Origin: Syntrophaceae bacterium UBA2192
GTDB taxonomy: Bacteria; Desulfobacterota; Syntrophia; Syntrophales; UBA2192
Assembly: GCA_002327315.1 (NCBI GenBank)
Contig: DCVI01000197.1
Span: 30,468 to 84,716, forward strand
DNA length: 54,249 nt
Direction: 5' to 3'
The notes under the pieces are model-generated. The model saw nothing but the letters and a program-made list of their open reading frames with translations. It ran no database searches and was not told the origin of the DNA. A program made the position numbers and the translations under genes. Shown one piece after another: positions 9,432 to 33,255 of this stretch (within the stretch, counting starts at the first letter, position 1; the number at the start of each line of letters is the position of its first letter).

Positions 9432-9834
9432 TTTACACCTCTGCTCTTTATTATTTTGTCTTAGTTAACAGCAAGATCGATGCCGATAAAATATAATATT
9501 CCCAGGTAGTTGATAATAAAGGACAATATTTACAAGTAGGACTTTATGCTTACTTTTTTTTACTGCGAAAACTGTAACATATTCCGACGGTCATCGCCCT
9601 CTGTCTTGCCTCCTTTTTATGTAACCAACTGTAATAATGAGCTAATTAGCGATATGCCAATTTGTAAAGAAAACCAACAAATTATTTAGTCTTTGCCTAT
9701 TAATGAATTGTTGTAAGTACGTGCTTATCTTAACTAAGGTATTTTGAACTGAAAAATCAGGTTTTCGCTCTAAAAAGGAGGTGCATGATGAAATATTCAG
9801 ACCGCTGATTCATTCAACGGCCATTTTTAGTGAA

Positions 9835-9943
9835 TTACCCCGCCTACGAGGCGGGGCATCTTGAAAGGCAATGAGGGGGATTGCATCCCCCATGCCCCCG
9901 CACCGCATTCATCCCCGTCCACAGGACGGGGTATTCTGCGGGG
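9835..9943. repeat. GC-rich nested-hairpin element inserted in an AT-rich intergenic region
   Basis: Stems: CCCCGCC/GGCGGGG (9838-9856), GGGGGA/TCCCCC (9875-9891), CCCCGTCC/GGACGGGG (9913-9931) and an enclosing CCCCGCA/TGCGGGG (9896-9943). It opens with TTACCCCGC, like the hairpin at 1020-1042. Confidence 0.7.
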
Positions 9944-10106
9944 CATTCATAAAAATCCCCTTACAGAAGCGAAATTTTATTGTAAAAAATCTTTATATTT
10001 GTGAGATAGGTTCAAAAGACGGTTTTTTTTAGTATACGGAGGTGATCAGTTAAAGAAAAGAGGGGTTAGGCACGATGGCAATATAAAAACGAAAGGAGAG
10101 ACCGGT

Positions 10107-12270: not shown

Positions 12271-13452
12271 ATGCCATTCATGGAATTTATCGACCTTGCA
12301 TTCCAGCAAAAACGTATCCGGGGTAAAATCGGCGAGCACATCGAAGCCGTATTGAATCACGGGCAATATATCATGGGCCCCGAGGTAGCTGCCCTCGAGA
12401 AGGAACTCGGCCAGTACGTCGGTACCAAACATGCCATTTCCTGCGCTTCCGGTACGGATGCTCTGCTCATTGCACTGATGGCCCGTGGCATCGGTCCGGG
12501 GGATGCCGTCTTGACCACTCCGTTCACGTTCATTGCCACAGCGGAGGTCATCAGCCTCCTTGGCGCTACTCCCGTCTATGTCGACATCGAGAGGAAGACA
12601 TACAACATTGACCCGGTTCAACTCGACCGATGCCTCTCCGCACTCCGAAGCGGGGATACCAGCATGTACCCATTGCCGCGCCTTGCAGAGCAAAGGGAAG
12701 TCACGCCGAAGGCGATTATCGCTGTTGACCTCTTCGGTTTGCCTGCGGACTACTCCCGTCTCGATGAGATTGCACAGCGGAACGGGCTTTTCCTTATCGA
12801 GGATGCCGCTCAGTCCTTCGGGGCTGAGTTGAACGGCAGAAAGGCCTGCACATTCGGGGATGTCGCCTGCACATCCTTTTTCCCCGCAAAGCCCCTTGGC
12901 TGCTACGGTGACGGGGGAATGTGCTTCAGTTCGGACGACAGCCTGGCGGAGATCATGCGCTCTATCCGTCTTCATGGAAAGGGCTCTCACAAGTATGAAA
13001 ACATCCGGATCGGCATCAACGGGCGGCTGGATACTCTCCAAGCGGCCATTCTCCTGGCGAAATTCAGCCTCTTCGAAGAGGAGGTCAGGCTGCGTCAGGC
13101 AGTGGCAGGCCGTTATACAGAGTTTCTGCGCTCCTGCCCTAGCCTCGTTACACCCGATGTCCCGACCGGCTACCAGAGCGTGTGGGCCCAGTATTCGCTC
13201 TTGGCACGAGGCGAAGCGCATCGGGACAGCATCATGAAAATTATGCAGGGAAAGGGAATCCCGACGGTCATTTACTACCCCAGGCCGCTTCATCTCCAGA
13301 GTGCCTTCTCTTCTCTGGGCTATCGAGAAGGGGATTTCCCTGTGAGCGAGGATTGCGCAAGGCGCATCTTCAGCCTTCCCATGCATCCCTATCTCACGGA
13401 GGGTGATCAGGACCGGATCGTGTCGGCGTTGCTCGAAGCCGCGGTGGCCTGA
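12271..13452 (+). CDS. DegT/DnrJ/EryC1 aminotransferase, WbpE/WlbC-like (UDP-2-acetamido-3-keto-uronate aminotransferase type)
   Basis: MEFIDLAFQQKRIRGKIGEHIEAVLNHGQYIMGPEVAALEKELGQYVGTKHAISCASGTDALLIAL closely follows the WbpE N-terminal pattern as I remember it. An alternative start is the ATG at 12280, with AGGA 9 nt upstream. Confidence 0.85.
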   Translation: MPFMEFIDLAFQQKRIRGKIGEHIEAVLNHGQYIMGPEVAALEKELGQYVGTKHAISCASGTDALLIALMARGIGPGDAVLTTPFTFIATAEVISLLGATPVYVDIERKTYNIDPVQLDRCLSALRSGDTSMYPLPRLAEQREVTPKAIIAVDLFGLPADYSRLDEIAQRNGLFLIEDAAQSFGAELNGRKACTFGDVACTSFFPAKPLGCYGDGGMCFSSDDSLAEIMRSIRLHGKGSHKYENIRIGINGRLDTLQAAILLAKFSLFEEEVRLRQAVAGRYTEFLRSCPSLVTPDVPTGYQSVWAQYSLLARGEAHRDSIMKIMQGKGIPTVIYYPRPLHLQSAFSSLGYREGDFPVSEDCARRIFSLPMHPYLTEGDQDRIVSALLEAAVA

Positions 13453-14449: not shown

Positions 14450-16042
14450 ATGTCGCAAAAAAGGATCGCGGTTGTCGGCGCCGGATACTGGGGCAAGAAT
14501 CTGGTCCGGAATTTTTATCAACTGGGAGCCCTCAAAACAATCTGTGACGGCGCTCAAGCGATTCGGGACGAAATGAGCAAGGCCTATCCAGAGTTGTTGG
14601 TCACGGATAAGCTCGATGCTGTTCTGAACGATCCCAATATTCAAGGAGTCGTCGTATCCGTTCCCGCTGCCCTCCATTATGAAATTGCGGAAAAGGCCCT
14701 TCAGGCTGGAAAGCACGTATTCGTGGAAAAGCCCCTTTCGCTGACCTATAGCGATGGCGAAAAACTTGTTCGCCTGGCTGAAGAGCGGAAAAAGGTCCTG
14801 TTCGTCGGCCACATTCTTCAATATCACGCCGCCGTTATTACATTGAAGGCAATGATCAAAGAAGGCAAAATCGGCCGACTCCAGTACATTTACTCCCGTC
14901 GACTCAGCCTTGGTAAAATCCGCCGTGAAGAGAATATCCTCTGGTCCTTCGCCCCTCACGACATATCCGTGATTCTCAGTATCACGGGGGAAGAACCTTC
15001 CTACGTCGACACTGTGGGCGGTAACTTCCTCCATGCGCGCATTCCCGATGTCACCATGACCAATCTCAAGTTCCCCTCAGGCATCGGCGGGCACATCTTT
15101 GTCAGCTGGTTGAATCCCTACAAGGAACAAAAGCTGGTCATCGTGGGCAGCAACGGCATGCTCGTCTTCGATGACACAGAACCGGTAGAGACTAAACTCG
15201 TTCTTTATCCTCATACGATTAATTGGCAAGACGGCATCCCGATCCCGCAGAAGGCAGAGCATGTACTCATCGATCTGAAGCCGATCTGGAAGGAACCGCT
15301 GAGGGCAGAATGCGAGGCCTATCTTTCGGCCATGCAGACGGGGACATTACCCTATACTTGCGGAGAAGAAGGCCTGCGCGTCCTGAAGGTCCTTGAGGCC
15401 AGCCAGAAATCTCTTGAGCAAAAAGAAAGCTCTCTCCCTAAAGTGCGAAAAACAGAAAGCGTGGAACAGAACACTGATTTTTTCATTCACGAAACAGCTA
15501 TCGTCGACGCAGGTGTTGAAATTGGCAAAGGCACAAAGATCTGGCATTTCTCCCATGTTCTTTCGGGATCGAAGATAGGCGTGAACTGCAACATCGGCCA
15601 GAACGTTGTCGTTGGAGCCGACGTTACGATTGGGAATCAATGTAAAATACAAAACAATGTGAGCGTATACAAAGGGGTCACCCTCGAAGACGGCGTTTTT
15701 TGCGGTCCCTCGATGGTCTTCACAAACATATATAACCCCCGGGCAGAAATATCCAAGATGGACCATGTCCGTCCCACCCTCGTAAAGAAAGGCGCCACCC
15801 TGGGAGCCAACTGCACCATTGTCTGTGGTCTTACGATCGGCAGTTATGCCTTCGTTGGTGCGGGAGCCGTCGCGACCAAAAACGTCCCCAACCATGCCCT
15901 GGTGGTGGGCAACCCAGCCAGACAGATCGGTTGGGGCTGTATATGCGGTGAAAGGCTCACAAACGATATGCATTGCACAGCCTGCGGCAAAGAGTACGAG
16001 AAAACCGATGATGGGTTATCTCTGAAAGTTCAAGGTGTTTAG
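14450..16042 (+). CDS. Fusion protein: N-terminal Gfo/Idh/MocA oxidoreductase (WbpB-like) plus C-terminal left-handed beta-helix N-acetyltransferase (WbpD-like)
   Basis: The N-terminus is [19 protein letters not shown]...[10 protein letters not shown]. From about residue 345 there are hexapeptide repeats: [25 protein letters not shown]...[26 protein letters not shown]...[10 protein letters not shown]. Confidence 0.85.
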
Positions 16043-16155: not shown

Positions 16156-17442
16156 ATGCTTGTATCCTGGCTGAGATCACAACTGAAAGAAGCAAAATCA
16201 TCTTCTTACTTTCAAGATATCGCTTTATTATCCAGTGGCGGATTAATCGCAAACATAATCGTTGTGGCTGTCATGCCGCTGGCTTCACGCATCTACACCC
16301 CAGAATCCTTTGCTATTGCTAATTTGGTTGTTCTTTGGGCTGGATTTTTTATCGTGCTGGTGACCTATCGACTCGAACTCTTTGTGCAGTTGCCCAAACA
16401 AGACGAGGATGCATGGAACCTAGTGCGATTAGTGGTTTTCTTAGGTATACTATGGACAGTTATCCTCACGCCGGCACTGTGGTTCTGGCGGGAGACCATA
16501 GCAAACCTGGCCGGTCAACAAAAACTTGGACCGTGGCTGACCGCCGTACCGATCACAGCTGCCGCACTGGCGCTGTCAACTGCTCTGCAAGGGTGGAACC
16601 AGCGTCGAGGCAACTATCGGCGCTCTGCAGGGGCGGAAATCGTATCCAAGACAGGTTATGCAGGCACTGTCATCGGCGGGCGCTGGTTGCTGCCTGACGC
16701 CGCTGGTCTTGTGCTGGCCACTCTTAGTTCCCATGCGGTAAAGATTGCGGCGCTCTCCGTGCGTAACCGTCCGGCATCGTATCCTTGGGATAGCCGCAAT
16801 CTGTGGGCGATCGGCCGAACCCACGAGAAATTGGCCGGAGGCATGATTTTCGCTCAACTGTGCCTTTCCTGCACTCTATTGATTCCGGCCATGTACATTT
16901 CTCGCAAGTATGGCGCTGATGCACTTGGGCAGTATTCATTAGCATTCCAGACCGTATGCTTGCCAGAGGCCCTGATTGGAAATGCAATCGGAAATGTTTA
17001 TTACCAACGCATTGCAGAGGAGTGGGTGCGAGGAGGTTCAATCCAAGGTCTCTTTCGTGCAACTGCAATTCGCCTGCTCTTTATCTGCCTGCCCCTGTTT
17101 GCTGTCGGAGCACTGATTTCGCCATGGATAGTGCCTGTAATTTTTGGTGATCAATGGCATGATGCTGGTATATTTGCGGCATTATTGGCAATCAGTTCCT
17201 TCGGCTCTTTCATCAGTACCGCGCTGGGCAGGACATGCATCGTTGTTACGGCATGGTGGTATCCTCCATTATGGCATCTAATGCGTGTAACGACCACGAT
17301 ATCGGTTGTCTGGATTGCAGATTCCATGTCACTGGGGGCAGTTGAATTCATAACGTTGCTCGTGTTCCAGCAACTGGCAGTGTTTGCTCTTGATTTCTTA
17401 TCGCAGCTGTATTTCTCCCAAAGGCGTCTCAAGACGACGTAG
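16156..17442 (+). CDS. Wzx-like oligosaccharide flippase (MOP/polysaccharide biosynthesis protein family)
   Basis: 428 aa and polytopic (about 12 TM). It starts with the pattern typical of Polysacc_synt proteins (...SSGGLIANIIVVAVMPLASRIYTPESFAIANL). Confidence 0.7.
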   Translation: MLVSWLRSQLKEAKSSSYFQDIALLSSGGLIANIIVVAVMPLASRIYTPESFAIANLVVLWAGFFIVLVTYRLELFVQLPKQDEDAWNLVRLVVFLGILWTVILTPALWFWRETIANLAGQQKLGPWLTAVPITAAALALSTALQGWNQRRGNYRRSAGAEIVSKTGYAGTVIGGRWLLPDAAGLVLATLSSHAVKIAALSVRNRPASYPWDSRNLWAIGRTHEKLAGGMIFAQLCLSCTLLIPAMYISRKYGADALGQYSLAFQTVCLPEALIGNAIGNVYYQRIAEEWVRGGSIQGLFRATAIRLLFICLPLFAVGALISPWIVPVIFGDQWHDAGIFAALLAISSFGSFISTALGRTCIVVTAWWYPPLWHLMRVTTTISVVWIADSMSLGAVEFITLLVFQQLAVFALDFLSQLYFSQRRLKTT

Positions 17443-17509: not shown

Positions 17510-19348
17510 ATGCCAGATATAACAAACTGCAGAACCCAAGCAGCGGCCTTTACAGAATGGGTCATTTTAGTCATTTCGGCAGGCAGTACAGCGGCTGCAC
17601 TTGGTTGGGTGCTTTGGTATTGCCGGTACGGCTTCGATTTTACTGATGAAAGTTATTACCTTGTCTGGCTGTCTAATCCATTCAATTACAGTGTATCGGT
17701 TACGCAGTTCGGGTTTTTTTACCATCCCCTGTATCAGTTTCTCGAGGGGAACATACCCGCATTAAGACAGGTCAATATTCTGACAACTTTTTCCCTGGCG
17801 TGGGTGCTGAGCAGCATTTTTCTGAAAACAGTTTACGGCGACAAGTGTCTTCAGAATGCACCGCGACTCATCATTGCAGGGGCCATTGCCACGGGATCAC
17901 TTATCTTCCTGTCTCTCTGGATACCAACACCGAGCTATAACAGTTTGGCCTTACAGGCATTATTGGTTACATTCATTGGATTGCTTCTGGCAGATTACAA
18001 GATCTGTCGCTCAAGTATTGCAGGTTGGATCTTGATTGGGGTTGGCGGGTGGTTGGCTTTCATGGCAAAGCCCACGACTGCTTCAGCACTCGGGCCGATT
18101 TCAGGATTCTATCTGCTGGCAGCAGGGAAGATGAGACTTCGCCTGCTGGCTATTTCACTGGCCACTGCACTAAGCCTCGTTGCAATCACCGCGTTATCCA
18201 TAGATGGGTCAATCATTGCGTTCTTTAATCGGCTGAAAGAGGGAGTCGATACTGCCAAGACATTGGTTGGCGGCAACTGGGCCGCTCCATTGGTGAGGCT
18301 GGATGATTTTCAGCTTGACGGAGGAGCAAAACACATTTTAACTGCCGGCACAGCAATCTTTGCTTCCGCCGCATATTTAACTCAGTCAAAGAGTAAACCG
18401 ATGTCGTATGCGGGTACCATACTGTCAATCGCATTTGCCCTGGCAAGCATGGCAATCGTGTTTGGAGTTATTCAGGGAAACATGAATGCCGGTTACTTTC
18501 AGGTACTTTTGCTTTGGTCTGTCCCCTTTGCCACACTCGCGGTTGGATTTGCCTTATACCGGTTCAAGGGCCTGCTTCACATTTCGCGCCAGCAATGGGC
18601 CTTGGTGCTAAGTTTCCTTGCATTCCCCTATGTCTATGCATTTGGGACAGGCAATAACTACTGGCTGATGAGTGGACATGCCGGAATCTTTTGGGTGCTG
18701 GCCGGCCTTGTTCTGCTGAGTCCCATCGCTTCGAACAGGAAGTTTCCGGCCATGCTGTTGTCTCTCGGCCTTGCGGTTCAAATGGTGACGGTGTCACTCG
18801 TTCATGCAGGCATCGAAGCGCCCTATCGGCAACCTCAACCCTTGCGAGAACATCGTTACACGCTCGACATTGGAAAGCCTGGATCTACATTGATTCTCCC
18901 TGAAGGGTTCGGTCAATACATCACAGAAGCAATAAGTGCCGCGAAGGCAGCGGGTTTCAAGGAAGGAACGCCGATGGTTGATTTAACGGGACAATCTCCC
19001 GGTATCCTCTATGCGATGGGAGCCAGCAATATTGGGCAACCCTGGACAGTCGGCGGCTACCCGGGGAGCGATACCGTTGCCGCAGCCATGTTGCGCAGGA
19101 GCTCTTGTGAAGATCTTGCTACGGCCTGGCTGCTGACGGAATCCAAGGGGACACAAACACTTTCCCCTGAGATACTCTCGAGCTTTGGTGCGGACATCGA
19201 TACCGATTATCAAGTCGTTGGCATATTCAAGACCGCAGAATGGGCGGGTGCCTATAAAGAGGCCCGTGTGCAGCGGATTTCAAAGCCAGTTCGCTCCATA
19301 GATATTGCTATCTCCGCATGTGCGGCAGCCAGGGCGGCAAAGAAATGA
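17510..19348 (+). CDS. Large polytopic membrane protein with a C-terminal soluble domain; GT-C-fold (ArnT/GtrC-like) glycosyltransferase candidate
   Basis: 612 aa. More than 10 predicted TM helices lie in the first ~440 aa, and an acidic motif [10 protein letters not shown] follows TM1, where GT-C enzymes carry their DE/DD motif. The last ~170 aa are hydrophilic. The CDS is secure; the function is inferred. Confidence 0.55.
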
Positions 19349-20040
19349 AGAAGATCGCGATTGTGCAATCCAACTACATCCCCTGGAAAGGTTATTTCGA
19401 TCTGATAGCCTCAGTGGATGAGTTCGTTCTCTACGATGATATGCAGTATACCCGACGCGACTGGCGAAACCGAAACCAGATCAAGACACCACGGGGACTG
19501 CAGTGGCTGACCGTGCCTGTCAAGGTGAAGGGAAAATACCACCAGACCATTCGAGAAACGGAGATTGAGGGGACCGGGTGGTCAACGTTGCATTGGAAGT
19601 CTCTCTGCCAACACTATCGCCGCGCAAAATGTTTCAATGCGATGGCACAGGAACTCGAATCAATTTACCTTCTGACAGAATATACACATCTGTCACAGCT
19701 CAACCGCACGCTGATCGAATGGGTGTGCTCGAAACTGGGCATAACGACCCGAATCAGCAACTCTTGGGATTACCAACTGAGTGATGGCAAGACTGAGCGA
19801 TTGGTTGATCTGTGTTGTCAGGCAGGCGGCCGTGAATACATCTCAGGCCCTGCCGCGCGCGGGTATATCGATGAAACCATCTTCGAAGAAAAGGACGTCA
19901 AGCTCACATGGTTCGACTATGGGGGTTATCCCGAATACCCTCAACTATGGGGAGACTTTACCCATGCGGTTTCCATTCTTGACCTGCTGTTCAACTGCGG
20001 CAGCGAAGCGCCACGCTATATGAGGTATGTTCGCGCATGA
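19345..20040 (+). CDS. WbqC-family protein
   Basis: [21 protein letters not shown]... is the characteristic WbqC N-terminus. ATGA overlaps the upstream stop codon. Confidence 0.8.
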
Positions 20041-20963
20041 AGCTATCAATCGTTTCCACGCTTTATCAGTCAGCACCATATATTGATGAGTTTTATCGGC
20101 GAGCCACTGAAGCCGCGAAACGCCTGACCGACGAATACGAAATTGTGATCGTTAATGACGGTTCACCAGACGACTCTCTTGCGCGTGTTATTCGTCTTGC
20201 AGAGTTAGATAGTCACGTTATCGTTATCGATTTATCTCGAAACTTCGGCCATCACAAGGCCATGATGACAGGACTGTCGCACGCGCATGCCGAGAATGTA
20301 TTTCTGATCGACAGCGATTTGGAAGAAGAACCCGAGTGGTTGCTGAGCTTTTCTCAGCAAATGGAGCAGGACAGATGCGATGTTGTTTATGGCGTGCAGG
20401 AACGACGGAAAGGGGGGCTGTTCGAGCGATGGAGTGGAGAATGGTTCTACCGATTCTTTCGTGTGCTCACCGGGTTGACCCTGCCGGAAAACATTGTCAC
20501 CGCCCGGTTGATGACGCGTCGTTATGTTGACGCCCTCGTTCGCCACAATGAGCGTGAGGTTTTTATTGCCGGGCTATGGCATATTACTGGATTTGACCAA
20601 CGGCCGCAAACAGTAACAAAACGTAACTCGAGTGAGACGACCTACACCTTTCGGCGGAAAATGTCGATTTTTGTAAACTCAGTCACATCCTTCAGCAACG
20701 CACCACTGAAGGCAATCTTCTATTTTGGAGTTGCAGTCTTTATCCTCGCGGGCGGCTATACGAGCTATCTCATCATCAATTGGTCATTCTTTGCAACACC
20801 CTTGAGTGGATGGACTTCAGTAATGGCATCCATCTGGCTTCTGGGGGGGGCGATCATTTCATTCATCGGTATAATTGGCATTTATCTGTCCAAGATCTTC
20901 ATGGAGACCAAAAATCGCCCATATACCATTGTTCGGCAGATATATGAAAAAAAGCAAGAGTGA
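20037..20963 (+). CDS. GT2 polyprenyl-phosphate glycosyltransferase (ArnC/GtrB/DPM1-like) with C-terminal TM helices
   Basis: [19 protein letters not shown]...[15 protein letters not shown]...[18 protein letters not shown]...IDSDLEE, with two TM helices at the C-terminus. ATGA overlaps the upstream stop codon. Confidence 0.85.
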
Positions 20964-21579
20964 CCTACTGGCCGAGGTGGCTGACTACTACTCGGCCAAA
21001 CTGGCGGCACACGGCGCAACCCCTCGCGGTGTAGACTGGAACAGTGAGGAAAGCCAAAGACTGCGCTTCGAACAATTGACCAAAATCATTCGGCAACCAC
21101 GGGGCTTCTCGCTGAATGACTTGGGATGTGGCTATGGCGCCCTATCCGATTACTTGCTGTCGAAGTATCAAGACTTTACATACACCGGCTGCGATGTATC
21201 CAGCGATATGATTCTTGCCGCACGGTCCTGTCATTCACCCAGTCCCAATGTTCAATTTGTCGTGGCCGCGGAACCGCCTGCGATGACCGATTATGGAATC
21301 GCCAGCGGCATATTCAATGTAAGGATTGGCCGAAGTGACGCCAAATGGCTCAACTATATTAAAGAAACGCTCGATGTGCTTGATCGGACGAGTCAGCATG
21401 GTTTCGCCTTTAATTGCCTGACCTCCTACTCCGATGCAGACCAGATGCGTGATTATCTTTACTACGCCGACCCTTGCGCGCTGTTTGATCACTGTAAAAG
21501 ACGATACTCGCGTCATATCGCTTTGCTGCACGATTACGGCCTTTATGAATTCACAATCCTAGTGAGAAAGGAACCATGA
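20944..21579 (+). CDS. Class I SAM-dependent methyltransferase
   Basis: SLNDLGCGYGALSDYL (motif I). It overlaps the upstream GT2 by 20 nt. The ORF track begins at an upstream TTG (20875). Confidence 0.75.
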   Translation: MKKSKSDLLAEVADYYSAKLAAHGATPRGVDWNSEESQRLRFEQLTKIIRQPRGFSLNDLGCGYGALSDYLLSKYQDFTYTGCDVSSDMILAARSCHSPSPNVQFVVAAEPPAMTDYGIASGIFNVRIGRSDAKWLNYIKETLDVLDRTSQHGFAFNCLTSYSDADQMRDYLYYADPCALFDHCKRRYSRHIALLHDYGLYEFTILVRKEP

Positions 21580-22238
21580 AAGAGCTGATCATTTTCGGGA
21601 CAGCAGATATTGCCCAACTGGCTTATTTCTATTTTTCAAATGATTCGGACTACAAAGTTGCAGCATTCACGGTAGATGCCGAATATGTTAAAGTTGATGA
21701 ATTCTGTGGCCTTCCTGTTGTGCCCTTTGAAGAAGTAATAGAACAATACCCGCCAGAAAGATATGATATGTTTGTGGCTCTTAGCTATTCAAAACTGAAC
21801 CAGATTAGAAAGGAAAAATACATTGCCGCTCATTCCCTGGGTTATCAACTTGCTAGCTATATCAGTTCACGAGCGACGATTCTCAATGACTTCCGGATAG
21901 GAGATAATTGCTTTATCCTGGAAGATAACACCATTCAGCCCTTTGTCACCATTGGAAACAACGTCACCCTCTGGAGCGGCAACCATATTGGCCATCACTC
22001 TACAATCCACGATCACTGTTTCCTTGCATCACATATTGTGGTTTCCGGCGGTGTAGAAATCGGCGATGCGTGTTTTATAGGCGTCAACGCCACGCTACGG
22101 GATCACATAAAGATAGGAGAAAGGTGTGTGATTGGCGCAGGGACCCTGATCGTGGCTGATGCCGATCCAGAAGGCGTTTACATTGGCAATGCCACCGTGC
22201 GCGCCAATGTTGCAAGCCCGCGATTGACGAAGATATGA
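21576..22238 (+). CDS. NeuD/PglD-family sugar N/O-acyltransferase (left-handed beta-helix)
   Basis: MKELIIFGTADIAQLAYFYF (Rossmann-like N-domain) followed by hexapeptide repeats: IGDNCFILEDNTIQPFVTIGNNVTLWSGNHIGHHSTIHDHCFLASHIVVSGGVEIGDACFIGVNATL. Confidence 0.8.
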   Translation: MKELIIFGTADIAQLAYFYFSNDSDYKVAAFTVDAEYVKVDEFCGLPVVPFEEVIEQYPPERYDMFVALSYSKLNQIRKEKYIAAHSLGYQLASYISSRATILNDFRIGDNCFILEDNTIQPFVTIGNNVTLWSGNHIGHHSTIHDHCFLASHIVVSGGVEIGDACFIGVNATLRDHIKIGERCVIGAGTLIVADADPEGVYIGNATVRANVASPRLTKI

Positions 22239-22246
22239 GGTAAGCG

Positions 22247-23152
22247 ATGAAGTGGAAAAAGTTAGGGCGAGTATTTTGCACGGATGATAATTACGAGTGG
22301 ATGAAAAGTCACGCGGCAGTCGCGATAGCGGAGAATATTGAGAATAATATATTTAGAATTTATTTCGGCACTAGGGACCATTTGAACAGATCCTACACCG
22401 GATACGTGGTAATAGATATATTCTCTCCAAACAATATCCTTGAGCAGTCATCCACCCCTGTCTTGGCCCCAGGGGAGTTGGGGACATTCGACGACAGCGG
22501 TGCATTACCAACATGGCTTGCGGTGAGGGGTAATATTCGATATCTTTATTACATTGGTTGGAATTTGGGGGTCACCGTCCCCTTTCGAAATTCTATTGGT
22601 CTGGCTGTAAGTATCGATGGATCGAATTTTAAGCGTTACGCAGCAGGCCCGATCGTTGATCGCTCATTGCATGAACCGCATTTTTGTGCAAGTTGTTGCG
22701 TTCTGCCAGGAAATGATTTCTGGAGAATGTGGTATCTGTCCTGCGTAGAATGGTCACTCGTAAATGGAGCACCGCAGCATCGTTACCACATAAAGTATGC
22801 CGAGTCGGACGATGGTATTTATTGGCGTCGGAATGGGTTGGTGGCAATTGAATTTAAGAATGATAATGAGTACGCTATATCCAGACCATCAGTTGTGCGC
22901 GATGATGACTGCTGGAGGATGTGGTACTCCTATCGAGGAGCAACTTATCGAATAGGCTATGCAGAATCGGAAGATGGTCGTACTTGGATTCGCCGCGACG
23001 ATTTTGTAGGAATCGATGTGTCGTCGTCTGGATGGGACTCAGAAATGATCGAATACCCTTTTGTCTTCGAACATAATGGGGAGCGGTATATGCTATACAA
23101 TGGAAACGACTATGGACGGACCGGTTTTGGGTTAGCGATAATGGAGAAATAA
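22247..23152 (+). CDS. Beta-propeller protein of the GH32/43/68/130-like fold, function unknown
   Basis: MKWKKLGRVF..., recurring WRMWY / DGxxW blade motifs (FWRMWYLS, CWRMWYSY, SDDGIYWRR, SEDGRTWIR), and no signal peptide. A GAGGT SD lies upstream. Confidence 0.55.
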   Translation: MKWKKLGRVFCTDDNYEWMKSHAAVAIAENIENNIFRIYFGTRDHLNRSYTGYVVIDIFSPNNILEQSSTPVLAPGELGTFDDSGALPTWLAVRGNIRYLYYIGWNLGVTVPFRNSIGLAVSIDGSNFKRYAAGPIVDRSLHEPHFCASCCVLPGNDFWRMWYLSCVEWSLVNGAPQHRYHIKYAESDDGIYWRRNGLVAIEFKNDNEYAISRPSVVRDDDCWRMWYSYRGATYRIGYAESEDGRTWIRRDDFVGIDVSSSGWDSEMIEYPFVFEHNGERYMLYNGNDYGRTGFGLAIMEK

Positions 23153-23529
23153 TGATTCATCGAATCCTTGATCATGGTTACATTTTTTCTACTATTTTCT
23201 TTACTGTATATAGCCAGCTCATTATGCGCTGGCAAGTTACAAAGGCCGGTGCATTACCCCCAGACTGTTCGGGAAAAATTCAGTTTGTCTTATCGTTGCT
23301 CCTCAATCCCTGGGTGATGACCGGTATTGTTGCCACGTTTCTCGCTGGCGTATCCTGGATGCTAGCCATGACGCGCTTCGAAGTCAGTTATGCATTCCCA
23401 TTCGTGAGCCTCATATACATCTTGGTACTTGTCTCAAGCATTTTTTTGTTCCATGAATCTTTAACATTAGCCAAGTTTGCCGGAACGCTTATCGTTATTC
23501 TCGGCATAATAGTAATTGCTCGAGGGTGA
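23152..23529 (+). CDS. Small 4-TM EamA/SMR-like protein (ArnE/ArnF-like lipid-linked sugar flippase candidate)
   Basis: 125 aa with four hydrophobic helices. The C-terminal half, SYAFPFVSLIYILVLVSSIFLFHESLTLAKFAGTLIVILGIIVI, matches the EamA/ArnE pattern. TAATG overlaps the upstream stop codon. Confidence 0.65.
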   Translation: MIHRILDHGYIFSTIFFTVYSQLIMRWQVTKAGALPPDCSGKIQFVLSLLLNPWVMTGIVATFLAGVSWMLAMTRFEVSYAFPFVSLIYILVLVSSIFLFHESLTLAKFAGTLIVILGIIVIARG

Positions 23530-24149
23530 CTATGGGCCAGGTAACAACCGGTTTCCGGACCATTCTTTCTCACCCATATCTTTATAGCATGTTTCAATAT
23601 CTGATGGGAGCGCACCAGGGGCGAATCCGGTTCATTTCTGATTTTGTTCGTCCTGTGCCGGGAAGTGCTATCCTGGATATCGGTTGCGGTACGGCAGACA
23701 TTCTTGATTATTTACCCTGCGTTGATTATTGGGGTTTTGATATCAATCTAGCCTATATCGATCAGGCCAAGGCACGATTCGGCGTGAGGGGAAAGTTCCA
23801 GTGCCAGGAGCTTAAGGCTGCAGACCTCGACAATCTGATGAAGTTCGACATTGTCTTGGCAATTGGATTGCTGCACCACCTCGATGACACCACAGCGGTA
23901 AATACTCTGGTGCTTGCTCATCGAGCGTTGAAACGGGAAGGTCATTTGCTTACGATTGATCCTTGTATAGAGCCCGGGCAAAACCCGATTGCGCGTTTCC
24001 TAGTCACACATGACCGTGGGCAGCATGTCCGCACCTCTGAGGGGTATGCTGCTCTGGTATCCAGCATATTTATGCAGCCTCGCGTAGAGGTCATACACAG
24101 GTCGTGGATTCCCTATACGCACTGCATCATGCAGTGTACTCGCCAATGA
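23526..24149 (+). CDS. Class I SAM-dependent methyltransferase
   Basis: AILDIGCGTADILDYL (motif I) and IVLAIGLLHHL. The start is GTG 23526 (GTGA overlap) or ATG 23532. Confidence 0.8.
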   Translation: MTMGQVTTGFRTILSHPYLYSMFQYLMGAHQGRIRFISDFVRPVPGSAILDIGCGTADILDYLPCVDYWGFDINLAYIDQAKARFGVRGKFQCQELKAADLDNLMKFDIVLAIGLLHHLDDTTAVNTLVLAHRALKREGHLLTIDPCIEPGQNPIARFLVTHDRGQHVRTSEGYAALVSSIFMQPRVEVIHRSWIPYTHCIMQCTRQ

Positions 24150-25276
24150 TTCCCTTCAATAAGCCATACATGACCGGTCGTGAGCTATGGTATATCGCCC
24201 AGGCCCACACCAACAGCCATCTTTCCGGGGACGGAAGTTTCACCAGGAAATGCAATGGGTGGTTGGAAGCGATTACGGGCGCGCACAAGGCGCTTCTCAC
24301 TCATTCATGCACGGCAGCATTAGAGATGGCTGCGCTACTGGCTAATATCCAACCCGGCGACGAAATCATCATGCCATCATACACTTTTGTTTCGACAGCC
24401 AATGCTTTTGTACTGCGAGGGGGTGTGCCGGTTTTTGTCGACGTACGGCCGGATACGCTCAATATCGACGAGACCCTGATTAATGCGGCCATCACGCCGC
24501 GCACCAAGGCAATTGTCCCTGTTCACTACGCAGGAGTGGCCTGCGATATGGATGCCATCATGATCATCGCGAGGCAGCATAATCTCATTGTTATTGAAGA
24601 TGCCGCGCAGGGGATCATGTCAACTTACAAAGGACGGCCGTTGGGGTCGATTGGACAGCTAGGCGCGTATTCATTCCATGAGACCAAGAACATCATTGCG
24701 GGCGAGGGCGGGGCACTCCTGGTCAACGATGCATGCTTTGCAGAACGGGCCGAAGTTATCCGAGAAAAGGGCACCAACCGCAACCTCTTTTTCCGCGGCC
24801 ATGTGGACAAGTATACATGGGTCGATATCGGCTCTTCCTACCTGACCGGCGAAGTCGTTGCAGCGTTCTTGTGGGCACAAATGGAGGAAGCCGAGGCGAT
24901 CACGGAAAAGCGGTTGGCAATCTGGGAATTTTACCATGCGGCGCTCGCGCCGCTGGAGACTGCCGGTGTGCTGCGCCGGCCCATCATTCCCGACAGCTGC
25001 CAGCATAACGCGCATATGTACTACATCTTGCTCGAATCCTTGGAGAAGCGGTCCGAGTTGATCGCACGATTGAAAGAACAGGGCATTAATGCGGTTTTTC
25101 ACTATGTACCGTTACACAGTTCGCCGGCCGGAAGGCGACATGGCCGAGCATTTGGAACGATGATTCATACCGAATCTGTATCGGATCGGTTACTGAGACT
25201 GCCCTTCTGGGTGGGGTTGAGTGAGACGGATATCATGCAGACGGTTGGTGCAATAGAACGCTTGCTATGCCCATAG
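24146..25276 (+). CDS. DegT-family aminotransferase, WecE/RffA-like (dTDP-4-keto-6-deoxyhexose 4-aminotransferase type)
   Basis: MIPFNKPYMTGRELWYIAQAHTNSHLSGDGSFTRKCNGWLE...LLTHSCTAALEMAALL...IIMPSYTFVSTANAF. ATGA overlaps the upstream stop codon. Confidence 0.85.
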   Translation: MIPFNKPYMTGRELWYIAQAHTNSHLSGDGSFTRKCNGWLEAITGAHKALLTHSCTAALEMAALLANIQPGDEIIMPSYTFVSTANAFVLRGGVPVFVDVRPDTLNIDETLINAAITPRTKAIVPVHYAGVACDMDAIMIIARQHNLIVIEDAAQGIMSTYKGRPLGSIGQLGAYSFHETKNIIAGEGGALLVNDACFAERAEVIREKGTNRNLFFRGHVDKYTWVDIGSSYLTGEVVAAFLWAQMEEAEAITEKRLAIWEFYHAALAPLETAGVLRRPIIPDSCQHNAHMYYILLESLEKRSELIARLKEQGINAVFHYVPLHSSPAGRRHGRAFGTMIHTESVSDRLLRLPFWVGLSETDIMQTVGAIERLLCP

Positions 25277-30740: not shown

Positions 30741-31874
30741 ATGAGACCGTACCAGATCTGTACCAACTGTGTCATGGATACAACCGACTCAAAAATTTCA
30801 TTCGATGAAAAAGGGGTTTGCGATCATTGCAATGATTTTTATAAAAATGTGAAGCCGAAGTGGCACACGGATGAGCGCGGAAAGGCTGAGCTCAAAGCCA
30901 TTGTCACGAAGATAAAAGAGAGTGGAAAAGGAAAGGATTTCGACTGTCTTTTAGGAATCAGCGGAGGCGTCGACAGCTCCTACATGTTACATGTTACCGT
31001 TAAAGATTTCGGATTGCGTCCGTTGGTTTTTCACGTGGACGGTGGATGGAATTCAGAACTCGCAGTCAACAACATCGAGGTCATGATTGATAAACTTGGC
31101 CTTGATCTCTACACGGAAGTTATTGACTGGGAAGAAATGCGAGATTTTCAACTTGCCTTCATCAAGTCCGGCGTACCGCATATTGACATACCCCAGGATC
31201 ATGCTTTCATTGCAACGCTTTACAATTTTGCCGACAAATACAATATCAAATATATCTTAAACGGCGGCAATATCTCAACCGAGTGCGTGCGAAATCCGAT
31301 GGAATGGCTTTATTATGGGACGGACATGGCGCAGATAAGAGATATTCACCGCAGATTCGGTACCATCCCTTTAAAAAACTATCCTTTAAGCCCAATTCTT
31401 AAGCACAAGTTTTATCTGCGATACATAAAAGGGATAAAAGTAGTAAAACCATTGAATTATTTTCCCTATGTAAAAAAGGAAGCCGTTAAATTGCTGTCGG
31501 AAACATATGGATGGAAAGAGTACCCCCAGAAGCACTTTGAATCGAGGTTCACGAAATTCTATGAAGGATACTGGTTGCCGGTAAAGTTCGGGTACGACAC
31601 GAGAAAAGTGCAGTACTCGAGCCTCATTCTCACTGGCCAAATGTCCCGGGACGAAGCCCTTGAAAAGCTGAAGGTGCCGGCTTATGACACTGACACCATT
31701 GCCGACGAGTTCAAATACATCGCAACCAAGCTGAACATCACGGAAGACGAGCTTCGTTCCTATATGGAAGCGCCAAACAAGACATACAAAGATTATAGAA
31801 ATCAGGAAAGTCTGTTTGTTTTGGGAGCGAATATATTGAAGGCGATTGGCGCCGAAAACGCGATTAAGAGATGA
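30741..31874 (+). CDS. N-acetyl sugar amidotransferase (WbuX/WbpG/PseA family)
   Basis: An N-terminal zinc ribbon (CTNCVMDTTD...FDEKGVCDHCNDF) is followed by a PP-loop (LLGISGGVDSSY). An AGGAGC SD lies upstream. Confidence 0.85.
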   Translation: MRPYQICTNCVMDTTDSKISFDEKGVCDHCNDFYKNVKPKWHTDERGKAELKAIVTKIKESGKGKDFDCLLGISGGVDSSYMLHVTVKDFGLRPLVFHVDGGWNSELAVNNIEVMIDKLGLDLYTEVIDWEEMRDFQLAFIKSGVPHIDIPQDHAFIATLYNFADKYNIKYILNGGNISTECVRNPMEWLYYGTDMAQIRDIHRRFGTIPLKNYPLSPILKHKFYLRYIKGIKVVKPLNYFPYVKKEAVKLLSETYGWKEYPQKHFESRFTKFYEGYWLPVKFGYDTRKVQYSSLILTGQMSRDEALEKLKVPAYDTDTIADEFKYIATKLNITEDELRSYMEAPNKTYKDYRNQESLFVLGANILKAIGAENAIKR

Positions 31875-32485
31875 TTACTATCATTGATTACGGTCTTGGC
31901 AATATCCGGGCATTTGCCAATGTTTACGAAAGACTCAATATCCCTGTATCCATTGCTACAACGGCTGATGGCCTGAAAAACGCAAAAAAAATTATCTTAC
32001 CCGGGGTCGGTGCGTTTGATCATGCAATGAGGAAGTTACATGACTCGGGCATGCGCGAGACCCTTGATCAGTTGGTGCTGGATCGAAAAGTGCCTGTTCT
32101 CGGAATATGCGTGGGTATGCAAATGCTGGCCCGATCAAGCGAGGAGGGCATTCTGCCCGGTCTGGGATGGATTGATAGCATTGTAAAAAAGTTTGACGTC
32201 TCTCATTTGCAGTCGAAAACACAGCTGCCCCACATGGGGTGGAATACAATTCATCCAAACAATCATGATCCCCTACTGGTAAATTTTGACAGCGATTCCC
32301 GTTTCTATTTTCTACACTCCTACTATTTTCATTGCATCAATCAAAGCGACACAATTGCCACGACTGAATATGGCATTAAATTCACCAGTGCCGTAGGGAA
32401 TAAGAATATCTACGGGGTTCAGTTCCATCCTGAAAAAAGCCACCACTGGGGCATTCAACTACTGAAAAACTTCGCGGATCTCTAA
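31871..32485 (+). CDS. hisH: Imidazole glycerol phosphate synthase glutaminase subunit paralogue (HisH/WbuY-like)
   Basis: MITIIDYGLGNIRAFANVYERL..., ILPGVGAFD, GICVGMQML (catalytic Cys) and FHPEKS. ATGA overlaps the upstream stop codon. Confidence 0.9.
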   Translation: MITIIDYGLGNIRAFANVYERLNIPVSIATTADGLKNAKKIILPGVGAFDHAMRKLHDSGMRETLDQLVLDRKVPVLGICVGMQMLARSSEEGILPGLGWIDSIVKKFDVSHLQSKTQLPHMGWNTIHPNNHDPLLVNFDSDSRFYFLHSYYFHCINQSDTIATTEYGIKFTSAVGNKNIYGVQFHPEKSHHWGIQLLKNFADL

Positions 32486-32487
32486 GT

Positions 32488-33255
32488 ATGCTGCGACCAA
32501 GGATTATTCCCTGTCTGCTGGTTAAAAACGGCGGTCTGGTCAAGACCGTCAATTTCGGCCACCCGAAATACGTGGGCGACCCCATCAATGCTGTCAAAAT
32601 ATTCAACGAAAAGGAAGTCGATGAGCTGATTGTGGTGGACATCGATGCTTCCGTTCAGAACAGGGAGCCGGATTACGTCATGATCAAAAACCTGGCCACC
32701 GAATGCAGGATGCCGCTTTGTTATGGCGGCGGTGTAAAGTCTGTGGATCAGGTGGAGAGGATCATAAGCCTGGGTGTCGAGAAGGTCGCCATGAGCTCGG
32801 CCGCCGTCAGCAACCCCGTACTCATATCAATGGCGGCGGAACTTGTTGGGTCGCAGAGTATTGTCGTGGTAATGGATGTGAAAAAGAGAGGCCGCGGTTA
32901 TGAGATCTGGACCCATAACGCAAGCAAGCCAACGGGGCTGGCTCCTGTCGATTTCGCAAAGCAAGTGGAGGCACTCGGCGCAGGAGAGGTGGTAATGAAC
33001 TCCGTCGACCATGATGGAGGCATGAAGGGCTATGATCTCGAACTCGTCAGTGAAGTCCGCGAGGCGATAAGATTGCCGATGACCGTATTGGGCGGCGCCG
33101 GATCACTGAAAGACATAGCGAAGTTAATTCATACTTTCGGCATCATCGGTGCTGCAGCCGGAAGTTTGTTCGTGTTCAAGGGAGTATACAGGGCCGTATT
33201 GATCAATTACCCAAGCCGTGCCGAAAAGGATGCTCTCATCAACAAAGGGCCATAG
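32488..33255 (+). CDS. hisF: Imidazole glycerol phosphate synthase cyclase subunit paralogue (HisF/WbuZ-like)
   Basis: RIIPCLLVKNGGLVKTVNF...YVGDPINAVKIFNEKEVDELIVVDIDAS...GGGV... Confidence 0.9.
   Translation: MLRPRIIPCLLVKNGGLVKTVNFGHPKYVGDPINAVKIFNEKEVDELIVVDIDASVQNREPDYVMIKNLATECRMPLCYGGGVKSVDQVERIISLGVEKVAMSSAAVSNPVLISMAAELVGSQSIVVVMDVKKRGRGYEIWTHNASKPTGLAPVDFAKQVEALGAGEVVMNSVDHDGGMKGYDLELVSEVREAIRLPMTVLGGAGSLKDIAKLIHTFGIIGAAAGSLFVFKGVYRAVLINYPSRAEKDALINKGP

Follow-up and report, generated by a model that had tools for sequence, protein, structure and literature searches.

The nine genes at 17510-25276 of the window (the whole 54,249-nt stretch of DNA analysed here) are best read as a self-contained periplasmic glycosylation cassette that would combine three-component logic with its own nucleotide-sugar branch, a reading to which we give a probability of about 0.68. 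The cassette would appear to be a hitherto undescribed form, found in many genomes, of the known three-part lipid-carrier system, and the sugar it transfers is probably an N-acylated, methylated 4-amino-6-deoxyhexose. In the scheme that we propose, RmlA and RmlB, encoded outside the window, would supply dTDP-4-keto-6-deoxy-D-glucose, which g9 would turn into dTDP-4-amino-4,6-dideoxyhexose; the amino group would be N-acylated by g5, and the sugar methylated by g4, g8, or both. The glycosyltransferase g3 would load this sugar onto undecaprenyl phosphate (Und-P) at the cytoplasmic face, g7 would flip the lipid-linked sugar, and g1 would transfer it in the periplasm to a surface glycan, most likely the Und-PP-linked O-antigen/EPS unit or the LPS of the surrounding Wzx/Wzy locus, with g2 and g6 serving as accessory tailoring or helper proteins. 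We infer the sugar, the acceptor, and each enzymatic step, as well as the use of a dTDP-sugar by g3, the order of methylation, and the role of WbqC (g2).

Gene structure and genomic setting

The module consists of nine open reading frames, all in frame and each with one terminal stop:

g1, 17510..19348, + strand: 612-aa polytopic protein with 13 TM helices, predicted GT-C-fold transferase (AF2 model, Foldseek)
g2, 19345..20040, + strand: WbqC-family protein, cytoplasmic (PF08889, 278 bits)
g3, 20037..20963, + strand: GtrB/ArnC/DPMS-type polyprenyl-phosphate glycosyltransferase (full-length GtrB/ArnC matches)
g4, 20944..21579, + strand: class I SAM-dependent methyltransferase, 211 aa (Methyltransf_25/12/11)
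g5, 21576..22238, + strand: NeuD/PglB/VioB-type hexapeptide N-acyltransferase, for a 4-amino sugar (TIGR03570)
g6, 22247..23152, + strand: 301-aa cytoplasmic GH130/GH43-like beta-propeller protein (weak matches only)
g7, 23152..23529, + strand: 125-aa EamA/ArnE-F-like protein with ~4 TM helices, predicted to flip the lipid-linked sugar (EamA)
g8, 23526..24149, + strand: second class I SAM-dependent methyltransferase, 207 aa (Methyltransf_12/25/11/23/31)
g9, 24146..25276, + strand: WecE-type dTDP-4-keto-6-deoxy-D-glucose 4-aminotransferase (TIGR02379, NF008687)

Profile and PDB sequence searches upheld the family assignments made for the module genes in a preliminary description of this DNA, and a re-check of reading frames and junctions gave the same positions for the head-to-tail run that it had reported. 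The overlapping junctions span 1-20 nt each: 4-nt ATGA overlaps at 19345, 20037, 21576, and 24146, a TAATG junction at 23152 (g6/g7), GTGA at 23526 (g7/g8), and 20 nt shared by g3 and g4 (20944-20963); g5 and g6 are separated by an 8-nt gap before 22247. A mechanical list of reading frames runs g2, g4, and g9 further upstream than the starts adopted here from the preliminary description, which agree better with the lengths of homologues, with how the family models cover the proteins, and with independent gene calls. For g8, an alternative ATG at 23532, two codons downstream, is the start that JGI gene calling adopts on a contig of matching gene content and order (L090), and the tight spacing is kept with either start. 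The gene set and order are seen again in unrelated genomes, and in Paraburkholderia hospita the 20-nt overlap of GT2 and methyltransferase is also present; on this comparative evidence, the nine-gene arrangement is more than chance. Around the module, the window encodes heptosyltransferases, Wzz, Wzx, a Wzy candidate, GT4s, an initiating transferase, and a ligase-like Wzy_C protein, and by this gene content the surroundings are an LPS/O-antigen locus, the main chain of which would not depend on the module. Also in the window are genes for a PEP-CTERM protein and for a ligase-like protein of the exosortase-associated kind and, at 46049-49856, a candidate three-component system of the pentofuranose type.

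The predicted membrane components

A search of the g1 sequence against Pfam, NCBIfam, and the PDB returned zero matches, and no link to GT-C families was found by sequence or profile; its GT-C assignment comes from fold, and from neither of these. The AlphaFold (AF2) model is of high quality (pLDDT 88.6, pTM 0.91), and the best nine Foldseek matches in the PDB are all GT-C enzymes (STT3A/B, yeast Stt3, AftA, and EmbC), with probabilities of 0.85-1.00, query-normalised TM-scores of 0.38-0.44, and a best E-value of 4e-4. WaaL ranked 29th (TM 0.16), and transporters scored about 0.1. The GT-C-like fold and soluble C-domain claimed earlier are thus what the model gives: 13 TM helices, N-in/C-out, obeying the positive-inside rule, with an acidic first periplasmic loop and a periplasmic alpha/beta domain at about residues 437-612. 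The acidic motif FDFTDESYY, already singled out in the preliminary description, lies at residues 42-50, immediately past TM1, in the most conserved part of the family. Residues G41, D46, and Y50 do not vary, and conservation at D43 and E47, which share periplasmic loop 1 with D46, is 90% or higher; K187-P188 is likewise invariant, and of the 88 homologues encoded in the loci, 65 have D-x-[TS]-D-E. With 2,535 clusters at 50% identity, the family is large; g1 is a predicted GT-C-fold transferase and the founding member of this unannotated family of membrane enzymes.

The other two membrane components have recognizable relatives. The full-length alignments of g3 with GtrB (5EKP, 1.8e-42) and ArnC (9HWJ, ~1.1e-34) take in the DxD motif (D92-S-D94) of the GT-A domain, the juxtamembrane region, and both C-terminal TM helices (222-247 and 262-280), and so bear out the polyprenyl-phosphate-transferase features that had been claimed for this GT2. 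Its full-length NCBIfam matches, PgfS (169 bits) and ArnC (125 bits), are both under the equivalog cut-offs, and where the canonical motif is DxDLQ[DNH], the GT2 of the module reads DxDLEE. We know of no characterised GtrB-family enzyme that uses a dTDP-sugar. With 34.3 bits, g7 passes the Pfam EamA gathering score of 28.2, and the NCBIfam families that match it best are ArnF, over the full length at 46.6 bits, and ArnE, at 28.7 bits, again both under the equivalog cut-offs; in other genomes a GtrA-family protein fills the slot. The 4-TM protein sits in sugar loci and, by its family matches, is ArnE/F-like, as had been proposed. The preliminary description had named three outcomes that would count against it (no GT-C fold in g1, a 4-TM protein grouping with drug exporters, a GT2 without polyprenyl-phosphate-transferase features); all were checked, and the results favour its reading.

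A conserved core and its accessory genes

The neighbourhood survey covered 51 genomes from several phyla, in each of which the g1 homologue is flanked by 8 kb or more of sequence on either side, using a 10-kb search distance. A GtrB-type GT2 with C-terminal TM helices was present near g1 in 45 of the 51, a WecE-type aminotransferase (a homologue of g9 at 50% identity or more) within 10 kb in 42, and an EamA- or GtrA-type small protein in 35; in 16 of the 51 loci no small flippase was detected. WbqC is missing from ~40% of g1 loci. All nine genes are real, but the conserved unit comes to about six functions.

N-acylation is among these. The score of g5 against TIGR03570 is 179.6 bits (cut-off 160.8), and its place is taken by a formyltransferase in loci L002, L003, L008, L053, L056, and L080 and by a GNAT in L087. 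The Thiobacillus and Achromobacter loci have a formyltransferase and GtrA swapped in with the logic kept, and Hylemonella has a minimal six-gene version, without WbqC, that uses EamA and a GNAT weakly resembling WecD. Across these genomes, N-acylation is, by gene content, a conserved core step with an interchangeable enzyme (hexapeptide, formyl, or GNAT), and not one of the extras among which the preliminary description had counted it; the parallel with Arn is therefore closer than was stated there. That label does suit WbqC, the propeller protein, and the particular methyltransferases, which are accessory on the same evidence. WbqC is found in 36 of the 41 loci with a GT2 of the DxDLEE type and is, by this association, an accessory partner of that subtype; the top 120 g2 homologues show 72-87% identity, and a PDB fold search with its AF2 model (pLDDT 79.7) gave no significant match. 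The matches of g6 are weak (beta-1,2-mannobiose phosphorylase, 39 bits; PDB 9FJ8, E 4e-4), and the best annotation carried by its homologues, which form a large and conserved family, is "GH43/DUF377". In the loci surveyed, g6 and a formyltransferase never occur together, and g4, g5, and g6 travel as a group (18, 17, and 19 of 51 loci, respectively). In the g8 region, some type of methyltransferase is found in nearly all variants.

As to the donor, g9 scores above the cut-offs of both WecE models (TIGR02379, 632 bits against 435; NF008687, 623 against 375). RmlA and RmlB, looked for in the window, are absent from it; roughly a third of the loci have them no more than 10 kb away, and on a Methylococcaceae contig rmlCDBA adjoins the module. 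Most g1 loci examined sit in O-antigen/EPS clusters. In Pseudomonas koreensis, an unrelated 526-aa membrane protein fills the g1 slot. The donor genes there are not part of any O-antigen locus, so the acceptor need not be O-antigen.

Alternative interpretations

An unlikely alternative is an Arn-like charge modification, in which WbqC would remove the N-acyl or formyl group from the Und-P-linked sugar and g1 would decorate lipid A or core with a cationic 4-amino-4,6-dideoxyhexose, altering resistance to cationic peptides. By analogy with the Arn, Flm, and Lgm pathways, that group would be a transient protecting group, which we consider doubtful. The formyltransferase variants do mirror the formyltransferase domain of ArnA, ArnC and ArnF are among the best family matches of g3 and g7, translational coupling links WbqC to the GT2, with whose DxDLEE subtype it keeps company, and the P. 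koreensis module stands outside the O-antigen genes. Moreover, a deacylase is, to our knowledge, part of every amino-sugar three-component system characterised so far (Arn, Flm/NaxD of Francisella, and Lgm of Bordetella), which favours this reading. However, the WbqC model is unlike NodB, YdjC, and other deacylase folds, many g1 loci, the minimal Hylemonella variant included, do without WbqC, and O-antigen/EPS clusters house most loci. The cassette also keeps its methyltransferases, which suggests a decorated neutral sugar.

Two further readings change the fate of the sugar. That the same donor pathway serves periplasmic or surface O- or N-glycosylation of protein, not LPS/EPS, is quite improbable: the best fold matches of g1 are indeed STT3 protein glycosyltransferases, with PMT further down the list, the top NCBIfam match of g3 comes from a streptococcal protein-glycosylation system (PgfS), and the window has its PEP-CTERM and exosortase-associated proteins, but the glycan-acting AftA and EmbC match g1 about equally well, the sequence motifs of STT3 and PMT are absent from it, as is any profile match, and in most genomes examined the module falls within O-antigen/EPS gene sets. 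It is very improbable that these genes do no more than provide dTDP-Fuc4NAc or Qui4NAc to the main chain by ordinary cytoplasmic repeat-unit synthesis, and we give equally little credence to its corollary, that g3, as an ordinary GT2, works on the Und-PP-linked unit, with g1 serving as polymerase, ligase, or transporter. O-antigen clusters often do have WecE- or VioB-type genes for main-chain sugars, and g1 has no sequence-level family assignment. Against this stand the full-length GtrB/ArnC match of g3, which extends over the juxtamembrane and TM portions by which polyprenyl-phosphate glycosyltransferases are defined, the GT-C fold matches of g1, which leave WaaL and transporters well behind, the small flippase that the cassette conserves, and a locus that already holds Wzx, a Wzy candidate, and a ligase-like protein.

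Comparison with known systems

The Arn system (ArnB, the ArnA formyltransferase domain, ArnC, ArnD, ArnE/F, and ArnT) adds L-Ara4N to lipid A. The periplasmic cassette proposed here resembles it in the sequence of aminotransferase, N-acylation, Und-P transfer by a GtrB/ArnC-type enzyme, a small DMT-type flippase, and a 13-TM GT-C protein with a periplasmic C-domain, as well as in the full-length alignment of g3 with ArnC, the ArnF affinity of g7, and the formyltransferase of some variants. It differs in that its amino sugar would derive from dTDP-4-keto-6-deoxyhexose by a WecE-type enzyme and not from UDP-4-keto-pentose; it has neither a UDP-GlcA decarboxylase nor an ArnD-type deformylase, its flippase is a single gene instead of the ArnE/ArnF pair, g1 lacks sequence similarity to ArnT, methyltransferases, WbqC, and the propeller protein are added, and it is located in an O-antigen locus.

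With Gtr (GtrA, GtrB, and GtrC), and the related hexose systems grouped with it (Klebsiella gml; Gram-positive CsbB/GtcA/YfhO and GacI-L), the module shares the three-component logic and the character of a portable cassette in or near O-antigen loci. GtrB is the closest PDB entry to g3, GtrA-family flippases replace g7 in many loci, and the variable GT-C partner has its counterpart in the unrelated P. koreensis protein in the g1 slot. Gtr, however, draws on housekeeping UDP-hexose without dedicated sugar-synthesis genes, whereas the module has four to six cytoplasmic enzymes for a specialised donor, and a DxDLEE motif in its GT2 instead of DxDLQD.

Francisella Flm (FlmF2/NaxD/FlmX/FlmK) and Bordetella Lgm (LgmA-D) add amino sugars to lipid A; an ArnC-like enzyme puts the N-acylated amino sugar on Und-P, and flipping and GT-C transfer follow, steps that the module is predicted to share. 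Those systems start from UDP-GalNAc or UDP-GlcNAc and have a defined deacetylase; a search of the module genes in the window with Pfam and NCBIfam found none recognisable. The Fuc4NAc branch of ECA (RmlA/RmlB, WecE, and WecD) is matched by g9, above the WecE equivalog cut-off, and by the pairing of a WecE-type enzyme with the WecD-like GNAT in Hylemonella, but there the cytoplasmic WecF puts dTDP-Fuc4NAc directly on lipid II, while in the module a GtrB-type enzyme is predicted to hand the sugar to Und-P. Pentofuranose systems are a recent example of how the three-component scheme has spread to unusual sugars, with additional tailoring enzymes at work ahead of the transfer step (Kelly et al. 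2024, PMC11127046); they differ from the module in that a UbiA-type phosphoribosyltransferase, not a GT2, charges the lipid, and the sugar is a pentofuranose.

Gene content and start sites

The preliminary description read 17510-25276 as nine head-to-tail genes, and the string holds up when checked by script: nine plus-strand ORFs, numbered g1 to g9 from 5′ to 3′, are each in frame and end in a single terminal stop.

Genes of the module, with scores against Pfam and NCBIfam models
17510-19348, +: g1, 612 aa, no family and no scores in the Pfam and NCBIfam scans
19345-20040, +: g2, 231 aa, WbqC (PF08889, 278 bits)
20037-20963, +: g3, 308 aa, GT2 (Glycos_transf_2, 93 bits; full-length sub-threshold PgfS and ArnC matches)
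20944-21579, +: g4, 211 aa, SAM methyltransferase (Methyltransf_25/12/11)
21576-22238, +: g5, 220 aa, NeuD/PglB/VioB acyltransferase (TIGR03570, 179.6 bits versus 160.8)
22247-23152, +: g6, 301 aa, GH130/GH43-like propeller (weak matches only; homologues without names)
23152-23529, +: g7, 125 aa, EamA (34.3 bits versus the Pfam gathering score of 28.2)
23526-24149, +: g8, 207 aa, SAM methyltransferase (Methyltransf_12/25/11/23/31)
24146-25276, +: g9, 376 aa, WecE (TIGR02379, 632.3 bits versus 434.85; NF008687, 622.9 versus 375)

The junctions are also as claimed, with ATGA at 19345, 20037, 21576, and 24146, a 20-nt overlap at 20944-20963, TAATG at 23152, and GTGA at 23526, all found by script; between g5 and g6 there is an 8-nt gap before 22247. 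The starts first chosen for g2, g4, and g9 give shorter genes than the mechanical ORFs do, and they are the better fit to the lengths of homologues, to how the family models are covered, and to gene calls made independently. The only start left uncertain is that of g8, which could be GTG at 23526 (a 4-nt overlap with g7) or, two codons later, ATG at 23532 (a 2-nt gap); on a contig where these genes recur in this order (L090), the JGI gene call uses the equivalent of the ATG, which may be the true start. A promoter and terminator scan returned counts no higher than in shuffled sequence and thus does not inform the operon limits.

The predicted GT-C transferase

The 612-aa protein had been proposed to have a GT-C fold, and the structure prediction points the same way. 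The AlphaFold model of g1, built on a 32-sequence alignment, has a pLDDT of 88.6 and a pTM of 0.91, and its best nine PDB matches in Foldseek are all GT-C enzymes: STT3A/B in four mammalian OST structures, yeast Stt3, AftA (two chains), and EmbC, with probability 0.85-1.00, query-normalized TM-score 0.24-0.44, and a best E-value of 4e-4. Lower in the list are EmbB and PMT, with MFS and other transporters at about 0.1 and WaaL at 0.16. The predicted topology is 13 TM helices, N-in/C-out, with loop K+R counts that obey the positive-inside rule. It places in the periplasm both loop 1 (residues 40-81), which has no K or R and four D/E including the conserved D43, D46, and E47, and a soluble C-terminal alpha/beta domain (437-612). 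The acidic motif FDFTDESYY, singled out in the preliminary description, begins loop 1 and is the most conserved element of the g1 family: G41, D46, and Y50 never vary, and conservation of D43 and E47 is 90% or more. The pair K187-P188, at a periplasmic turn, is likewise invariant. A polytopic N-in build, an acidic loop 1, and an extracytoplasmic C-domain make up the architecture of ArnT-, PglB-, and STT3-type GT-C enzymes.

Membership of g1 in the described GT-C families (PMT/PMT_2/ArnT, STT3, YfhO, GtrC types, and others) was considered and set aside, as there was no sequence-level match. Pfam and NCBIfam scans of g1 and about 31-32 relatives gave no match, save one relative with DUF6541 at 1e-4; phmmer and profile searches of g1 against PDB sequences gave none; and hhalign found no link to a PMT_2 protein (probability 0.3) or to the 577-aa candidate GT-C encoded elsewhere in the window. 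The GT-C assignment therefore rests on fold and topology, and g1 is predicted to be a GT-C-fold glycosyltransferase whose similarity to known enzymes is distant and at the level of fold. That it would use a polyprenyl-phosphate-linked sugar donor is suggested by its co-occurrence with a GtrB-type GT2. Its relatives are numerous and all without names: a word-indexed search returned 971 matches, and an exhaustive profile search 2,535 clusters (50% identity) at E ≤ 1e-3, with 1,199 at E ≤ 1e-30, almost all of about 600-630 aa.

Lipid loading and flipping

For g3, the ArnC/GtrB-type assignment is borne out by end-to-end PDB alignments with GtrB 5EKP (1.8e-42; g3 residues 2-302 on GtrB 27-329) and ArnC 9HWJ (1.1e-34; g3 2-304 on ArnC 9-315), which cover the juxtamembrane region and both TM helices; the hydrophobic segments of g3 are 222-247 and 262-280. 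The DxD motif in the N-terminal GT-A domain of g3, D92-S-D94, aligns with D94/D96 of GtrB. However, the loop reads DSDLEE (residues 92-97, window 20310-20327) against the canonical DADLQ[D/N/H] of GtrB, ArnC, and DPMS, in which the Gln is a Mg ligand. DxDLEE occurs in 41 of the 73 GT2s examined from such modules, and we read it as a subfamily variant among polyprenyl-phosphate glycosyltransferases. Thr155 of g3, opposite D157 of GtrB, was considered as a disqualifier and dropped: ArnC has Met and DPMS has Gly there, and since D157 is not conserved across the family, Thr155 is given no weight. Against the NCBIfam equivalog cut-offs, g3 falls short for both ArnC (NF007986, 124.7 bits versus 529) and PgfS (NF047588, 169.3 versus 500); g3 is a member of the superfamily that holds ArnC and PgfS and an orthologue of neither.

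The small 4-TM protein g7, described at the outset as EamA/ArnE-F-like, keeps that description, with EamA above threshold and ArnF (46.6 bits; model positions 7-118 of 120 matched) and ArnE (28.7 bits) as its best NCBIfam matches, both below the equivalog cut-offs of 99 and 92 bits, respectively. ArnE and ArnF form a two-gene heterodimer, whereas the flippase candidate of the module is a single gene. As a separate observation, the related locus of Gammaproteobacteria bacterium GD-1 (L085) has no EamA or GtrA gene; there, a 316-aa LPG_synthase_TM protein (9058-10008), like the MprF flippase domain, is encoded directly upstream of, and overlapping, the g1 homologue, and it may be an alternative flippase.

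Donor-sugar genes and orphan families

The scores of g9 are well above the curated cut-offs of both WecE models; against the ArnB model it has 214 bits versus a cut-off of 631. A search of the window for RmlA and RmlB found neither; they lie at most 10 kb away in about a third of all loci. The WbqC protein g2 had no match among PDB sequences, and a Foldseek search with its AF2 model (pLDDT 79.7) gave nothing significant, the best E-value being 6e-3 at a TM-score of about 0.25, weakly Rossmann/HUP-like. Searches of the open literature turned up no function for WbqC, the family being called just “uncharacterised.” The propeller g6 bears a weak resemblance to GH130 phosphorylases. WbqC is encoded in 36 of the 41 loci with the DxDLEE GT2 subtype.

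Related loci

When one genome was scanned for each species, 80 loci came up; they belong to alpha-, beta-, and gamma-proteobacteria, Nitrospirales, Acidobacteria, Thermodesulfobacteriota, and Acidimicrobiales. Partners within 10 kb were counted wherever the g1 homologue had 8 kb or more of sequence on either side, which was so in 51 loci. A GtrB-type GT2 with C-terminal TM helices is present in 45, a WecE-type aminotransferase (50% or more identical to g9) in 42, an EamA- or GtrA-type small membrane protein in 35, and WbqC in 30; the propeller (19), the g4-type methyltransferase (18), and the g5-type acyltransferase (17) are less frequent, and these last three form a sub-block that moves together. 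The preliminary description had claimed a three-component logic, with a GT-C transferase, a polyprenyl-phosphate GT2, and a small flippase. As in three-component systems of the Mann & Whitfield type, the three are encoded together, here by genes of a single overlapping string, and the trio recurs in 34 of the 51 genomes.

Paraburkholderia hospita has all nine genes. Thiobacillus-type and Achromobacter loci read g1-WbqC-GT2-formyltransferase-GtrA-methyltransferase-WecE, and a Hylemonella MAG has a minimal g1-GT2-GNAT-EamA-methyltransferase-WecE set, with the GNAT weakly WecD-like; on a Methylococcaceae contig, rmlCDBA adjoins the module. The formyltransferase (12 loci) and the propeller (30 loci) have no locus in common among related loci L002 to L088. 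The conserved core is six functions: a 4-aminotransferase, an N-acyl or N-formyl transferase, a methyltransferase, a polyprenyl-phosphate GT2, a small flippase, and a GT-C-fold transferase. In Pseudomonas koreensis (L089, 8424-14634), the donor sub-module WbqC-GT2-methyltransferase-hexapeptide acyltransferase-EamA-WecE is outside any O-antigen locus, beside alpha-2-macroglobulin genes. In the position that g1 has elsewhere, ahead of the donor genes and overlapping them by 4 nt, is the gene of a membrane protein of 526 aa that is unrelated to g1 (hhalign probability 0.2) and lacks a Pfam match. This suggests interchangeable membrane transferases and recalls Gtr, in which the GtrC component is interchangeable.

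The surrounding locus

The module is inside a low-GC island (0.45-0.53, versus 0.62 in the flanks), and the whole polysaccharide locus spans about 8000-49000. The island is an LPS/O-antigen-type locus.

Features around the module in the window
134-2641: heptosyltransferases
8856-9431, −: PEP-CTERM protein gene, left edge of the polysaccharide locus
12271-13452: WbpE-like aminotransferase
between the WbpE-like gene and Wzx, in island order: Wzz
14450-16042, +: WbpB-WbpD-like fusion, 530 aa, GFO/IDH/MocA oxidoreductase and hexapeptide acetyltransferase in one protein
16156-17442: Wzx, just before the module
after the module, in order: AsnB-like amidotransferase, 477-aa polytopic Wzy candidate, acetyltransferases, GT4s
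further on: HisH/HisF-like genes (see the trio in the next line), 2-epimerase, PglC-type initiating transferase
30741-33255, +: weak PP-loop/PAPS-reductase-like gene, HisH-like glutamine amidotransferase, HisF-like cyclase
last in order: PglD/PglE-like genes, PglF-like dehydratase, Wzy_C ligase-like protein
44302-45726: the ligase-like Wzy_C protein of the line above, exosortase-associated

With the WbpE-like gene next to the WbpB-WbpD-like fusion, the backbone may well contain a 2,3-diacetamido uronic acid, and the trio at 30741-33255 shows the pattern usual for O-antigen loci that make acetamidino sugars (WbuX/Y/Z-like). No gene of the module is needed to complete the backbone pathway, which fits the expectation for an add-on decoration cassette.

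The same locus also holds, at 46049-49856 on the plus strand, a second candidate periplasmic glycosylation system. It comprises a polytopic protein of 577 aa that weakly matches AftB-type arabinofuranosyltransferase (E 1.4e-4), a protein resembling SDR epimerases (47926-48966), and a UbiA-family decaprenyl-phosphate phosphoribosyltransferase (259 bits versus a cut-off of 234). It is probably of the pentofuranose type and can be compared with the pentofuranose three-component systems of Kelly et al. 2024 (PMC11127046).

Proposed mechanism and alternatives

The most economical reading, to which we give a probability of about two in three, is that the module is a periplasmic glycosylation cassette. 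Its enzymes would make a dTDP-4-acylamido-4,6-dideoxyhexose, probably methylated; g3 would transfer the sugar to undecaprenyl phosphate (Und-P), g7 would flip the Und-P-linked sugar, and g1, acting in the periplasm, would join it to a surface glycan. What we observe is the gene structure, the families, the fold, and the co-occurrence; beyond that we infer the chemistry, including dTDP donor use by a GtrB-type enzyme (for which we know of no precedent), methylation timing, C4 configuration (galacto or gluco), the acyl group, and the acceptor.

If WbqC were a deacylase, the module could bring about an Arn-like change in the charge of lipid A or core, a reading that would accommodate the formyl variants and the coupling of WbqC to the GT2. 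But the WbqC fold gives it no support, about 40% of loci are without WbqC, and the methyltransferases are conserved, so this is unlikely; the deacylase role was considered and has a place solely in this low-confidence alternative. A protein acceptor is more improbable again: STT3 and PMT are among the fold matches of g1 and PgfS is the best family match of g3, yet g1 matches AftA and EmbC just as well and the genomic setting is one of polysaccharide genes. We regard ordinary repeat-unit synthesis in the cytoplasm as very improbable, since three things contradict it: g3 has the GtrB/ArnC architecture over its full length, the small flippase is conserved, and there are separate candidates for Wzx, Wzy, and the ligase.

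The periplasmic cassette can also be taken as part of a larger joint reading, doubtful as a whole. In it, g1 would found a new GT-C family (about 2,500 clusters at 50% identity, in Proteobacteria, Nitrospirota, Acidobacteriota, and Actinomycetota) dedicated to Und-P-delivered 4-amino-4,6-dideoxyhexoses. WbqC and the DxDLEE GT2 would be a new way to load dTDP-derived sugars on the lipid carrier, with WbqC a new enzyme whose substrate is the sugar while bound to the nucleotide or the lipid; it might, for example, do the work of ArnD without being related to it. Environmental Gram-negative bacteria would have in the cassette a widespread and portable element that converts the serotype or the charge of their envelopes, and the WbqC (PF08889) and GH130-like propeller orphan families would gain a first function.

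Comparison with known systems

Through periplasmic three-component glycosylation, bacteria convert their O-antigen serotype, mask phage receptors, and resist polymyxin. To our knowledge, the systems characterized so far move Glc, Gal, GlcNAc, Ara4N, GalN, GlcN, and pentofuranoses. If the cassette works as proposed, dTDP-derived, N-acylated, methylated 4-amino-4,6-dideoxyhexoses would be a new donor class, and the new GT-C family would have thousands of members now called “hypothetical” in annotation pipelines. The orphan WbqC family would acquire a genomic context for testing. The swaps of acyltransferase (formyl, hexapeptide, or GNAT), flippase (EamA or GtrA), and membrane transferase would be a natural glyco-engineering toolkit, and the cassette would be a marker with which to predict side-branch sugars from genomes.

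The view that no characterized system matches the module stands: the open literature has three-component systems for hexoses, UDP-HexNAc-derived amino sugars or Ara4N, and pentofuranoses, and our searches of it found none for WecE-derived 4-amino-4,6-dideoxyhexoses (Fuc4N, viosamine). New here are the donor branch and the predicted GT-C family, alongside a GT2 subtype that stands apart and two accessory families that are orphans; the class of mechanism itself is well known, and known to be diversified, so that for the specialist the result is useful more than startling. Arn, by comparison, takes a UDP-GlcA dehydrogenase/decarboxylase route to a 4-amino-pentose and has the ArnD deformylase, whereas Pfam and NCBIfam show neither an ArnA decarboxylase domain nor an ArnD-like (NodB) gene in the module. 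Because g3 and g7 are below the ArnC, PgfS, and ArnF equivalog cut-offs, a UDP-GlcA decarboxylase and ArnD are absent, and g1 is in no described GT-C family, the module falls outside the named systems: it works like Arn, Gtr, Flm, and Lgm, yet belongs to none of them.
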